Counted from the first letter of the stretch, positions 1-57,849 are shown. The stretch is DNA of 64,000 nucleotides from Verrucomicrobiota bacterium (GCA_004321905.1 SCQF01000006.1:25410-89409); one strand, 5' to 3'. Translations and numbers: made by a program. Notes: generated by a model not told the origin, from the sequence alone.

Positions 1-756
1 TTCGGCATAACCGATGGCTTGGCGCGCGGTGGCGGAAAGCTGCGGGAATTTTTCACGCAAGCGACGGGCTTCGGCGAGCAATCCTTGTGCAAACATCAGT
101 TGCACTCTAGTCCGAATTCGTTCGGCAAGCAACGCCGGCGGGAGACGCAAACCGACGATCGTCCGGCTGACCGCTGACGGCTGACCGCTGACGGCTTCCT
201 CTTCCGAGGCTTGGAAATCGGAACCGTCGCTTTTTCCAAGGCTTGGAACTTCGCGCGCAAGCTCCAGCGCGCGGATCAAGCGGCGCGGATTTTGGCGGTC
301 GGATTCCGTCAGCGCGGCATAGCGCACGGGATCAAGTTGCTGCAATTTTTCTTGAAGTTCGGCGCGGCTCATTTTTACCGCCGTAGCGCGCCACGCGGGA
401 TCGGCGGCGGGCTGCGCCGTCAGCCCGGTCAGCAAACATTTGACGTAGAGGCCGGTGCCGCCGACGATGATGACCGGCTGGTCGGCGGCGCGCGCCGTAG
501 CGAGGAATCCCCGCGCGTGCTCGATCCACGCCGCAACGTGGAACTCTTCGTCCGGGTTGACCAAATCCAGACCGCCATAACGGATGTGGCCACGCTCGGC
601 GGCGGTCGGCTTGGCGGTGCCGATATCCAGGCCACGATAGACGAGCATGGAGTCGGCGGAGAGGATGACGGCGTTCAGTTCCCCGGCCAGTCGCTGGGCG
701 ACCGCGGTTTTGCCGGTAGCCGTCGCGCCGACGAGCATGAAAGCTTCATGTCGCGT
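1..756 (-). CDS. miaA: tRNA dimethylallyltransferase MiaA (partial; C-terminus beyond window edge)
   Basis: Manual minus-strand translation from the ATG at 754-756 gives MAATRHEAFMLVGATATGKTAVAQRLA...ILSADSMLVYRGLDIGTAKP..., with the P-loop and DSMxVYRGxDIGTAKP motifs of MiaA. The frame is open to position 1, so it is absent from the ORF track. It contains an in-frame palindromic element at 202-249. Confidence 0.8.
202..249. repeat. paired palindromic element (TTTCCAA-N4-TTGGAAA core), inside miaA CDS
   Basis: TTCCGAGGCTTGGAAA, 13-bp spacer, then TTTTTCCAAGGCTTGGAAC. In frame in miaA, where it encodes VPSLGKSDGSDFQASEE. Confidence 0.8.
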
Positions 757-1246
757 TGCCGCCATGGGAAGAAGTCTTGAGCGCCTGATCATTTAGCGGA
801 TGCCCGGCCACCCAAAGCGAGGACAGCACGTAGAGGAACACACCGACGCAGATCGCTGAATCCGCAACGTTGAAAACCGGAAAATGGTGACCGTGCCAGA
901 AAAAGTCGAGGAAGTCGGTCACGTAGCCGAGCTTGATGCGGTCGCAGACGTTGCCGAGGATGCCGCCGGCGAGCAGGCCGAGCGCGAGGCGGTGTTCCCA
1001 GCCATCGCTCAAAAATGCGCGGCGGAAAATCACCATCACCGCCAGCACCACCACGGAAAGCGCGGCGAGCCAGAGATTCTGCCCGCCCAACATGCTCCAC
1101 GCGGCACCGGTGTTGCGCAGATAGGTGAAGTGGAAAACCGATGCGATGATGGGCCGTGATTCGCCCAGCGCGAACACGTCGCGCACCCAGTGTTTGCTCG
1201 CCTGGTCGGCCACCGCAATCAGTAAAGCCCATAACCAGACGCGCAT
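746..1246 (-). CDS. lspA: lipoprotein signal peptidase II
   Basis: ORF 746..1444. The internal start MRVWLWALLIAVADQASKHWV...NTGAAWSM...FNVADSAI is LspA-typical; the upstream 66 aa are probably not translated. Confidence 0.8.
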   Translation of the reverse strand: MRVWLWALLIAVADQASKHWVRDVFALGESRPIIASVFHFTYLRNTGAAWSMLGGQNLWLAALSVVVLAVMVIFRRAFLSDGWEHRLALGLLAGGILGNVCDRIKLGYVTDFLDFFWHGHHFPVFNVADSAICVGVFLYVLSSLWVAGHPLNDQALKTSSHGGNAT

Positions 1247-1284
1247 ATTTTGCTTTCCTGCCGCTGTGTTCCGCCACAGCGGGA

Positions 1285-1899
1285 TCAGCTTTCGGACGTC
1301 TCCACCGCTTGGGAAATGGTTTTCCCGAACGGGCGATAGTGGGTCCGCCCGCGCTCGGCTTCGGACTGGCACTTGATGCACATCTTGGCGAACGGCTGGG
1401 CCTTGAGCCGCGGCATGGCGATCATCTCGCCGCAACGTTCGCACGCGCCGTAGACGCCCATTTCGATGCGCCGCATCGCGTCATCAATTTCGTAGAGCGC
1501 ATCTTGTTCGCTGCTGACCAGGTTCAGCGCGAATTCGCGGTCGAAATTATCCGTGCCGTGATCGGCCATGTGGAAGCTGTAACTGGAGAGATCGCCAGAA
1601 GATTCGCGCTGCGAGCGGTTCAGGTTGTCGCCGGCGAGAAAATTGATTTCGTCCACCACGCGGTCACGCAACTTCTGGAGATGCGCACGAAACTCCTTCA
1701 ACTCCGCCACCGGCCATTTGACCCGCTTGGGTTGCACCACTTCGTCGGCCGGCGTCACCTTGGGCTTCGCTACGCTCTTGGCCGGCGGCCGCGCCACGGC
1801 CTTGGTGCGTTTGGCGTGGGGCTTCGCCTGGGTCGCCGGTTTGGCGGCTTTTTTCACGGTCGTCTTGGCTTTTTTTGTGGCCATAAATCCACTCCTCAA
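1285..1899 (-). CDS. DksA/TraR family C4-type zinc-finger protein with Lys/Ala-rich N-terminal extension
   Basis: C-terminal CERCGEMIAMPRLKAQPFAKMCIKCQ zinc finger and a coiled-coil region. The N-terminal KKAKTTVKKAAKPATQAKP tail is low-complexity. Confidence 0.7.
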   Translation of the reverse strand: MRSGFMATKKAKTTVKKAAKPATQAKPHAKRTKAVARPPAKSVAKPKVTPADEVVQPKRVKWPVAELKEFRAHLQKLRDRVVDEINFLAGDNLNRSQRESSGDLSSYSFHMADHGTDNFDREFALNLVSSEQDALYEIDDAMRRIEMGVYGACERCGEMIAMPRLKAQPFAKMCIKCQSEAERGRTHYRPFGKTISQAVETSES

Positions 1900-2034
1900 A
1901 CCTTTTCGTCCGCCGCGCCATAGCTCGCCGAACGAAAAGAGCGGGGGCTTTTACCAGAACCCCCTTACCCTGTCAATGAAATCACAGCCACGCAAAATAA
2001 ATACCGGGAAAAGCGCCGGTTGGCTGCACCTGAG

Positions 2035-2295
2035 CTAGTGTGGGGGCTCAACGACCATCATGTGCGTACTGGCCGGCCGCACATGCTTTTTGTTCTGCTC
2101 CAGATAGTGCCGGACGGTGCGATACGACACCAAACCCAAGGCCAGCATGATGAATAAAATGACCACCGTCCAATGCAATACCGGATGCGGACGGGGCGGA
2201 TTGGTCTGCACCGGTGGTGTTTCCGTCCATTGAAACGTGATCTCCGGCTTGATCGGTTCGCCCTTTTCATCCAACAGGGCAACAAAGGATCCCAC
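2035..2295 (-). CDS. small hypothetical membrane protein
   Basis: 86-aa ORF downstream of pheS with one hydrophobic helix (WTVVILFIMLALGLVSY). No recognisable family. Confidence 0.25.
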   Translation of the reverse strand: MGSFVALLDEKGEPIKPEITFQWTETPPVQTNPPRPHPVLHWTVVILFIMLALGLVSYRTVRHYLEQNKKHVRPASTHMMVVEPPH

Positions 2296-2349
2296 TTTTT
2301 AATCTTTCGTTCCCAGCGCCCGACCTGCCCTCCGCTTGGTCCGCCGACC

Positions 2350-56601: not shown

Positions 56602-57000
56602 TTACCAGACATAGCACAACACTTCGCCGCCGACGTTCTGCTTGCGCGCCTCACGGCCCGTCATCAGACCTTTGGAGGTGCTCAGGATCGCCGTGCCCAT
56701 CCCGCCCAGCACGCGCGGAACTTCCGCCGCGCCCGTATAACGCCGCAGCCCCGACTTCGAGACGCGTTTCAAACCTTGGATGACCGGCTTATCATTCACG
56801 CCGTAACGCAGTACAACTTGAATCGTCTTTTTGACGCCCGTGCCTTCAACCACATAATTTTTGATGTAGCCTTCCTGCTTCAGGAGGCGGGCCAGTTCGC
56901 TTTTCAGCACCGAATGCGGCACCGCGACCTGTTCCAGCCCGGCGGTGGCGCCGTTGCGCACCCGCGTCAACATATCGGCAATTGGATCACACAAACTCAT
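56602..57000 (-). CDS. rpsH: 30S ribosomal protein S8
   Basis: MSLCDPIADMLTRVRNG... Confidence 0.9.
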   Translation of the reverse strand: MSLCDPIADMLTRVRNGATAGLEQVAVPHSVLKSELARLLKQEGYIKNYVVEGTGVKKTIQVVLRYGVNDKPVIQGLKRVSKSGLRRYTGAAEVPRVLGGMGTAILSTSKGLMTGREARKQNVGGEVLCYVW

Positions 57001-57021
57001 GCTTTCTTCCTCTCCGCTGGC

Positions 57022-57207
57022 TTACCAGCTCGCCTTGGTCACGCCCGGCAGTTTCCCTTCCAGCGCCAGTTCGCGGAAGCAAATACGGCACAGTTGGAAC
57101 TTGCGCATATGCGCGTGACGCCGCCCGCAACGCTTACAACGGTTGTACCGCCGCGCGCTGAATTTCGGCTTCCGTTCCGCCTTCACCATCCATGAAATCT
57201 TGGCCAA
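57022..57207 (-). CDS. rpsN: 30S ribosomal protein S14 type Z (zinc-binding, 61 aa)
   Basis: [47 protein letters not shown] contains the CxxC...CxxC motif. Confidence 0.8.
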
Positions 57208-57230
57208 AGTCGTCTCCTTCCTTTACCCTA

Positions 57231-57773
57231 TCACGCCGCCGCAAACGGCATTCCGAGCAGCTTAAGCAGCTCCTTCATTTCCGCATCCGTCTTCGCCGTC
57301 GAGACGAACGTGACATCCATGCCCTGCGTCTTCTTCACCTGATCGGGCCGGATTTCCGGGAACAACGTCTGTTCCTTCAAGCCTAACGAATAATTTCCGC
57401 GCCCGTCGAAGCCGCGTAACGGAATGCCACGAAAGTCGCGAATACGCGGCAGCGCCGCGGCAATGAGCCGCTCCAAAAAGTCATACATCCGGGGACCGCG
57501 CAACGTCACCCGCGCGCCGATCGGCATGTTCTCGCGCAGCTTGAAGTTCGAGATGCTCTTGCGCGCCTTGCGGATTTGCGCCCGCTGACCGGAAATCTTC
57601 GTCAGATCCTCAGCTACGTTTTTGATCACGTCGCGCTCGGCATCCGCATGCACCGCCATGTTGATCACAATCTTGGTCAACTTCGGCACCTGCATGACGT
57701 TTTTATAGTGCCCCGAGGCGACCAGCGCCTTGACCACATCCGTTTTATACTTCTCTTTCAATTGCCCTGCCAT
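57231..57773 (-). CDS. rplE: 50S ribosomal protein L5
   Basis: MAGQLKEKYKTDVVKAL... Confidence 0.9.
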   Translation of the reverse strand: MAGQLKEKYKTDVVKALVASGHYKNVMQVPKLTKIVINMAVHADAERDVIKNVAEDLTKISGQRAQIRKARKSISNFKLRENMPIGARVTLRGPRMYDFLERLIAAALPRIRDFRGIPLRGFDGRGNYSLGLKEQTLFPEIRPDQVKKTQGMDVTFVSTAKTDAEMKELLKLLGMPFAAA

Positions 57774-57795
57774 GGAATCATCTCTCCTGCGCGCC

Positions 57796-57849
57796 GTTTT
57801 CCAAGGTTTGGAAAATCAGCCCGCCGTTGTTTCCAACCCTTGGAAAACC
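57796..57849. repeat. paired palindromic element between rplX and rplE (intra-operon)
   Basis: GTTTTCCAAGGTTTGGAAAATC, 10-bp spacer, then TGTTTCCAACCCTTGGAAAACC. Confidence 0.8.

Follow-up and report, generated by a model that had tools for sequence, protein, structure and literature searches.

The stretch of DNA considered here, a window of 64,000 nt from a Verrucomicrobiota bacterium (GCA_004321905.1, SCQF01000006.1:25410-89409), derives from a groundwater sample and corresponds to contig C48:25410-89409 of the source genome (G000; 2.53 Mb, 85 contigs, 59% GC). Between and within its genes lies a 15-19 bp palindromic element, TTTTCCAA-N3-TTGGAAAA, with the 15-mer core TTCCAA-N3-TTGGAA. The element occupies 22 loci between positions 202 and 57845, of which 14 are pairs exactly 32 bp apart from start to start, one is a doublet at 21 bp, and seven are singles (Table 1). 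Pfam confirms the identity of the host genes hydF, pheT, miaA, xseA, a mutY-like gene and a Lyase_1 gene. A sequence-only reading of the window had reported many palindromic loci, and these are real. Its general pattern, TTTTCCAAG-N-CTTGGAAAA, is also correct, but the core it gave, TTTCCAA-N4-TTGGAAA, has no match in the window, as the arms are separated by N3. The word TTTCCA-N5-TGGAAA (equivalent to TTTCCAA-N3-TTGGAAA) matches 24 times against 0.02 expected, and TTCCAA-N3-TTGGAA with at most one mismatch matches 36 times against 0.18 expected.

Table 1. Element loci in the 64,000-nt window, followed by neighbouring features (positions counted from the first nucleotide of the window; ORF, open reading frame; REP, repetitive extragenic palindromic sequence)
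Feature	Position	Details	Context
Pair	202..248	First unit (202-216) with 1 mismatch, second (234-248) exact; spacing 32 bp	Inside miaA-like ORF (IPPT domain)
Pair	3362..3408	32 bp apart	Intergenic
Pair	7010..7056 (7010/7042)	Second member with 2 mismatches	3' side of tRNA-Glu
Pair	7408..7454		63 bp upstream of tRNA-Glu
Pair	10766..10812		Inside mutY-like ORF, NUDIX_4 region
Single	12521..12535		7 nt from stop of ORF 12543-13409 (minus strand)
Single	16726..16740		15 nt from stop of ORF 16756-19215 (minus strand)
Pair	22624..22670	First member with 1 mismatch	Just downstream of stop at 22699; next ORF, crudely called, is over-long and covers the pair
Pair	25922..25968		Divergent region, at or near 5' end of DUF2851 gene
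Single	27374..27388	1 mismatch	10 nt past stop of ORF 25963-27363
Single	29450..29464	1 mismatch	Inside xseA (exonuclease VII large subunit)
Pair	32719..32765		Intergenic
Single	33243..33257	1 mismatch	Inside ORF 32793-33398
Single	35142..35156	1 mismatch; missing at aligned position in G001 and G002	9 nt past pheT stop
Doublet	36249..36284	21 bp apart; both in G002, only second in G001	Inside pheT
Pair	39049..39095		5 nt past stop of MatE gene; separate canonical terminator follows
Pair	42743..42789		Nearly fills 68-bp spacer between convergent lptE-like and radical-SAM genes
Pair	45154..45200	Read LPSLGK....FFQALEK	Inside hydF, after NKTD motif
Single	46761..46775	Present in G001	Inside Lyase_1 gene
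Pair	48131..48177		Downstream of rplQ (L17)
Pair	51127..51173	Present in G001-G003 too	Between rpsM (S13) and rpsK (S11)
Pair	57799..57845		Between rplX (L24) and rplE (L5)
tRNA-Glu(CTC)	7270-7345	Minus strand	Adjoins element loci 7010-7056 and 7408-7454
RAYT-like gene	29715-30173	Minus strand	GTAGGAG-type REP doublets on either side
REP doublets	29602-29662; 30184-30256	GTAGGAG type	Flank the RAYT-like gene
6S RNA	34696-34875	Minus strand; 85 bits	Adjoined by element at 35142
Canonical terminators	39127-39156; 47239-47265		Neither coincides with an element
Prepilin-type (N_methyl) small protein	39177-39503	Minus strand	Large multi-copy family in the genus, with many DNA matches in G001-G003

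The genome as a whole contains 856 exact copies, 384 with one mismatch and 253 with two, compared with 0, 9 and 126 in a third-order Markov simulation. The sequence-only reading had extrapolated to thousands of copies; the high abundance holds, while the number was somewhat overstated, the real total being about 1,300. Other gaps between the arms, from N0 to N11, return only 0-4 matches each across the genome. When copies with at most one mismatch are clustered, they form 807 loci, comprising 415 pairs, 383 singles and nine triples, and for about 115 of the singles a degenerate partner lies 31-32 bp away. Element density is approximately one per 1.9 kb, with an inter-locus coefficient of variation of 0.65 and orientation counts of 525 versus 499. 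The element had not been recognized as a described repeat family, and the literature searched likewise contains no description of it: the motif appears in no paper found, and none links such a palindrome to Kiritimatiellia, the class discussed below. A scan of the window against Rfam returned 6S RNA and tRNA only, so the element matches no Rfam family, and no exact pair was found in viral contigs.

Neighbouring copies in the genome are separated by 32 bp in 374 cases and by 31 bp in 43, a spacing of three helical turns. The sequence within this spacing is not conserved, as had been claimed from the window: the spacer carries no more than 0.2 bits per position and is unrelated between copies. 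Information is confined to the arms and their flanking T and A tracts, with outer flanks at or below roughly 0.1 bits. The central N3 is not free: GGN and NCC prevail, so that each unit is weakly polar. Pairs are arranged as [GGN]...[NCC] in 159 cases, in the reverse order [NCC]...[GGN] in 47 and in tandem in 87, and this preference makes the pair as a whole dyad-symmetric. The orientation of singles shows no bias relative to the direction of the upstream gene (66 versus 66), and element orientation shows none relative to local GC skew. Arrays of three, four and seven units, alternating 31 and 32 bp, are found in G000 and in the further genomes G001, G011 and G185.

Placement relative to genes was tabulated with our own crude codon-usage gene caller. 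By this measure 72% of the loci are intergenic and 23% (184 of 807) lie inside called ORFs, 117 of the latter 150 bp or more away from both ORF ends. The per-base density is 18-fold higher in non-coding than in coding DNA, and elements make up 1.3% of the genome and 8.4% of its non-coding DNA, which, in a compact genome, suggests active maintenance. Many copies closely follow a gene: the distance from the 15-mer core to a stop codon has a median of 14 nt and a peak at 2-4 nt, often falling within 1-12 nt, and the distance to a start codon is looser (median 81 nt). Among intergenic regions of at least 70 bp, some 30-70% per size class, and typically about half, carry an element, with similar occupancy for tandem, convergent and divergent flanking genes; some convergent spacers consist of little more than one pair, as at 42743-42789. 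Copies within genes most often lie in the frame read F-Q-x-L-E. For pairs inside ORFs, 56 of 61 spacings keep to 31-32 bp, which places the two units in different reading frames; little other than a constraint acting on the DNA itself would readily account for this. The sites are thus kept at about 800 loci, in approximately half of the intergenic regions that are long enough and at tolerant spots within genes. The two longest element-free stretches in the genome, C18:41119-60223 (19 kb) and C48:115339-130034 (15 kb), have GC contents of 0.535 and 0.539, compared with 0.59 overall, and may be recently acquired islands.

How individual copies came about was followed in inspected alignments of the window with three genomes of the same genus (G001, G002 and G003), a small sample of orthologous sites; an automated comparison of arm and spacer identity across pairs was contaminated by non-orthologous repeat matches and was not used. 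The hydF pair aligns without gaps to G002 and G003, where the arms are kept and the 12-nt spacer is scrambled within surrounding codons that are about 90% identical. In G001, the orthologue of the first hydF element (45154-45168) is interrupted by a 36-bp in-frame insertion. The Lyase_1 element is present in G000 and G001, and in G002 and G003 the gap-free position holds unrelated sequence of equal length, FQGLEK being exchanged for FLSAGK. In the mutY-like gene, the G000 pair corresponds to sequences with 3-6 mismatches per unit in the relatives; the alignments with G001 and G002 are gap-free and one with G003 has a 3-column gap. As these orthologues differ by mismatches and are nearly gapless, the pair arose in place by substitutions. 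The pattern in pheT is likewise one of substitution, apart from one 3-bp indel in G001. The coding copies compared thus arose in place by point substitution, without insertion of an element. Accordingly, the element is not an ordinary miniature inverted-repeat transposable element, as had been supposed: it has no conserved interior, flanks, termini or duplications (spacer and flanks carry at most 0.2 bits), and orthologous "empty" coding sites show point differences as opposed to a missing element. Change by whole units is seen at one locus, L24|L5. The array there consists of two units in G000 and of three in G001, lengthened by exactly one period, and G002 and G003 also carry three units at this spacing, in degenerate form. 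These two genomes, whose copy density is the lowest among those of the genus, show visible decay of the motif.

The motif is confined to the class Kiritimatiellia, and is patchy there. In genome collections, the exact pair is found only in metagenome-assembled genomes of Kiritimatiellia/Kiritimatiellales, which carry varied labels (Lentisphaerae, Verrucomicrobia, Kiritimatiellae, Pontiellaceae, Tichowtungia), and in a sample of the phylum the genomes outside the class hold 0-1 copies. Within a sample of 61 class genomes, the window's genus reaches 1,345 and 856 copies, at least nine other families hold 50-370, and 21 genomes hold none, with strong differences in abundance between close relatives. 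The arms and the phasing persist across lineages despite differing centres and flanks: centres are GGC/GCC in the window's genus and TGA, ACA or CGA elsewhere, and G185 has the 5' flank AAAAC. The arrays of G185 reach seven units (L134, 2873-3076) and four units (L135, 2271-2380), with 31 and 32 bp in alternation. In these two arrays AT-rich and GC-rich spacers take turns, forming a 63-bp super-repeat, and the downstream flanks are homologous. Contig ends in G185 and G196 hold many arrays, which probably break the assemblies.

A second form of the element came from a de novo palindrome search of 400 kb of G008, a genome of the same order (genus g5) with no TTCCAA copies. This genome contains 36 exact copies of TTTTACGT-N3-ACGTAAAA, with essentially none expected, mainly in intergenic regions and arranged as pairs, triples and one quadruple at exactly 31 bp, e.g., C5:19186-19293 (loci L143-L162). 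Its spacer is partly conserved (AAAAACTTT plus GC-rich sequence). The architecture is the same and the 4-bp core alone differs, being ACGT/ACGT in place of CCAA/TTGG. Samples of 120-140 kb from the motif-free class members G044 and G037 and from the out-of-class G035 gave no comparable palindrome. Since a "motif-free" genus can carry another dialect, profiling by presence or absence of the motif is unreliable. A system that is restricted to one class, patchy within it and able to change its word would be as expected of a reader and sites that co-evolve.

One of two explanations offered by the sequence-only reading was that the elements are stem-loops selected for structure, similar to REP sequences or bacterial interspersed mosaic elements (BIMEs), and this finds no support in the substitution patterns. 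Among copies with two mismatches, mirrored changes are complementary in 12 cases and non-complementary in 11, with about 8 expected, and thus show no compensatory excess. On its own, an element has little tendency to fold (-5.8 kcal/mol, z = -1.5). In [GGN]...[NCC] pairs, the third centre base is complementary in 37 cases against 61.4 expected (p = 6e-5), and the opposite order, just as capable of pairing, shows no enrichment (47 versus 159). Long, perfect inverted repeats thus appear to be disfavoured. The lack of compensatory excess, along with this avoidance of complementarity within pairs, indicates that sequence is conserved rather than structure and supports a reading of the element as a site at the DNA level.

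With moderate confidence, and from sequence patterns, we interpret the elements as phased recognition sites for a putative dyad-symmetric (dimeric) DNA-binding protein. This had been the other suggestion of the sequence-only reading, and it is the best fit to the data, albeit an indirect one and with no binder found. A dimeric protein would read a site laid out as a T-tract, a 4-bp core, N3, the complementary core and an A-tract; the 31-32 bp spacing would set neighbouring dimers on one face of the helix, where they could bind cooperatively as pairs or longer arrays; and the protein's specificity would have co-evolved with the 4-bp core. The arrays might serve in nucleoid organization or as punctuation between genes, which is our guess. 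Counting for protein sites are the strict spacing around an information-free spacer, which is kept even inside ORFs, the multi-unit 31/32-bp arrays, the dyad polarity of pairs, and the absence of bias by transcription direction or GC skew. Also counted are the origin of coding copies in place, with arms kept and spacer scrambled in hydF, the class-wide arms and phasing with lineage-specific centres and flanks, the g5 dialect at 31 bp, and the apparent active maintenance in a compact genome. A comparable geometry is found in cooperative operators: NtrC sites at glnAp2 and tandem NrdR boxes are roughly 7-N3-7 palindromes 31-32 bp apart that are bound by interacting dimers. The element shares their palindromic layout (6-8 bp arms, N3) and three-turn spacing, geometry alone having been compared. 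These sites occur at a handful of promoters, whereas the element is found at about 800 loci, some of them within genes or where convergent genes end.

Several observations weigh against a DNA-binding protein as the reader. All of the evidence is comparative, and among Lrp-like proteins, HU/IHF copy number, small Fis, the histone fold and ParB no candidate fits. The Lrp/AsnC-like protein at C9:3700-4176 occurs in motif-free genomes and was not found in motif-rich G127 and G190, with a weak match in G091; HU/IHF are present in 1-5 copies per genome, unrelated to motif count; the HTH_8 proteins, examined for small Fis, are three long sigma-54 activators only; and no histone fold was found. ParB is encoded once per genome (with a second weak match in G091) and has its own site, since the contig with the only parB of G000 carries the canonical parS-like palindrome TGTTCCACGTGGAACA at C53:34400. 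Genes adjoining the triple arrays include no obvious DNA-binding protein. Pairs also lie within highly expressed ribosomal-protein operons (L24|L5, S13|S11), where a tight binder would obstruct RNA polymerase. At L24|L5 the array is additional DNA when compared with other families, in which the spacer measures about 5 to about 75 bp and lacks the element, and it may have come about there by insertion or duplication. Single-stranded, a pair is predicted to form one extended hairpin (stem about 20 bp, -18 to -26 kcal/mol). Two weaker points would suit a REPIN-like or RNA-level reading. On the sense strand of tandem spacers, G·U-type variants outnumber those of A·C type (105 versus 76, p = 0.04), which could be explained by strand skew. 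Units with a partner are slightly nearer to the consensus than those without (exact fraction 0.71 versus 0.63, p = 0.007; a weak effect), which is equally expected under cooperative binding.

Of the explanations that dispense with such a reader, molecular drive without function at individual sites retains a modest probability. A sequence-specific step, such as an uptake receptor, a repair nuclease or gene conversion, would favour matching alleles, and point mutation would add copies at any place that tolerates the sequence. Two precedents exist. The highly iterated palindrome HIP1 (GCGATCGC) of cyanobacteria is hyper-abundant, and its function is unsettled, with a role in nucleoid structure proposed (PMC5861425). 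[quoted passage not shown] Like HIP1, the element is a palindrome hyper-abundant in one clade, located in and between ORFs and conserved at orthologous positions, the last in a small sample from the window only; like DUS and USS, it occurs roughly evenly at about one copy per 1-2 kb without strand bias, in and downstream of genes, is gained by point mutation and has dialects. The origin of coding copies by substitution, the density without bias by transcription or GC skew, the in-gene copies in their preferred frame and the lineage dialects, as in DUS (PMC3630211), all fit drive. The strong differences between close relatives, the decaying sites of G002 and G003, and the low-GC element-free stretches, if these are recent imports, point the same way. 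The genome encodes ComEC and numerous pilin-like genes, and the prepilin-type protein at 39177-39503 is conceivable as a DNA receptor under an uptake model; ComEC is uninformative, as all 61 class genomes sampled encode it, irrespective of the motif. In contrast to the single 8-mer of HIP1, the element spans 15-19 bp with a free (if weakly polarized) 3-bp centre, an 18-fold non-coding enrichment that also speaks against drive, 31-32 bp phasing and a core that changes between lineages. The words of DUS and USS are asymmetric and are recognized by an uptake receptor, with no obligatory palindrome or three-turn phasing. USS, DUS and HIP1 are not known to show phasing held strictly to 31-32 bp, pairs with dyad polarity or arrays of several units, and natural competence has, to our knowledge, not been documented for the class Kiritimatiellia.

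A rather small probability attaches to a single-stranded DNA or RNA hairpin of the REP type, either spread by a transposase or kept for effects on mRNA 3'-end stability or translation past stop codons. REP sequences, including the doublets known as REPINs that are associated with RAYT transposases, and BIMEs are extragenic palindromes that occur as fixed-distance doublets and are inherited vertically with lineage-specific decay (PMC3116915, PMC3337134). The element resembles them in being an abundant palindrome, mostly extragenic and often 1-12 nt from a stop codon, with doublets predominating at a fixed distance around a less conserved spacer, as in REPINs (PMC3116915), and with decay by lineage. 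The pair hairpin, the slightly greater conservation of pair members (REPIN doublets are likewise more conserved than singlets), the small G·U excess on the sense strand and the added, unit-wise variable DNA at L24|L5 agree with such an origin, as does the presence of Y1 transposase genes in the genome. However, REPs are confined to extragenic space, whereas ORFs hold 184 of the 807 loci, and those coding copies that were compared owe their origin to substitution and not to insertion. A REP doublet maintains its pairing, whereas here there is no compensatory excess, complementarity is under-represented, and only one of two pairing orientations is enriched. The arrays of G185 and G008 are direct tandem units as opposed to inverted doublets.

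No cognate transposase was identified either. The window does contain a RAYT-like gene, the only good candidate of its kind, which scores 76.5 bits against NF047646 (cut-off 80) and has visible HUH and Y motifs, but its flanking REPs are of the GTAGGAG type and not TTCCAA elements. GTAGGAG occurs 83 times in the genome, its REP-like copies include stems that vary compensatorily, and one doublet folds to -56.9 kcal/mol. The TTCCAA elements have no conserved GTAG-like flank. Moreover, among the 61 class genomes, Y1_Tnp was not found in four of the 18 element-rich ones (G007, G185, G196 and G172) and is frequent in element-free ones. Y1_Tnp (IS200/RAYT-like) domains also occur within housekeeping ORFs of G000 at C53:24539-27835 and C53:15271-16509 (L108, L109), the first as an insertion of about 200 amino acids in alanyl-tRNA synthetase (1098 amino acids) and the second as a Ham1/ITPase-Y1_Tnp fusion (412 amino acids).

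The remaining explanations are highly improbable. [quoted passage not shown] Typical CRISPR loci are a few long arrays beside cas genes, and no system is known with repeats and spacers so short. An ordinary promoter or intrinsic terminator would suit an intergenic element with a hairpin near gene ends and a TTGGAA resembling a sigma-70 -35 hexamer, but the 60 bp downstream of 434 start-facing elements never exceed 0.09 bits and hold no -10-like signal at a fixed distance, such as the 16-18 bp of a sigma-70 promoter, the AT-rich stem with a 5' T-tract and 3' A-tract is the reverse of a terminator, in which a U-tract comes 3' of a GC-rich stem, a terminator scan found canonical terminators elsewhere (Table 1), and pairs lie inside ribosomal-protein operons and genes.

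Taken together, each site may be useful to the cell, or the sites may accumulate through a sequence-specific process in the manner of USS/DUS or HIP1, and a REP-like contribution at the single-strand level may be involved. If phased recognition sites are the correct interpretation, a further and more tentative proposal, to which we give a less than even but real chance, is that they constitute a class-specific, chromatin-like "punctuation". An abundant protein would coat phased arrays at about half of the gene boundaries and at tolerated sites within genes, and its specificity would have co-evolved with hundreds of sites, with the core changing from CCAA to ACGT in one genus. In either case, the element adds to the known hyper-abundant genomic words a combination of three-turn phasing, arrays, in-gene pairs and a dialect switch, and there is a fair chance that it is a more distinctive thing. 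REP, HIP1 and USS/DUS are long-standing puzzles, and the Kiritimatiellia element offers an unusually informative anatomy with which to approach them: the phase, the in-gene pairs, the two dialects, and sites that are decaying or not found in close relatives make the question testable. Ultimately, this is a sequence that occupies about 8% of the non-coding DNA in a member of a barely studied class, and whose arrays probably also break assemblies, as in G185 and G196.

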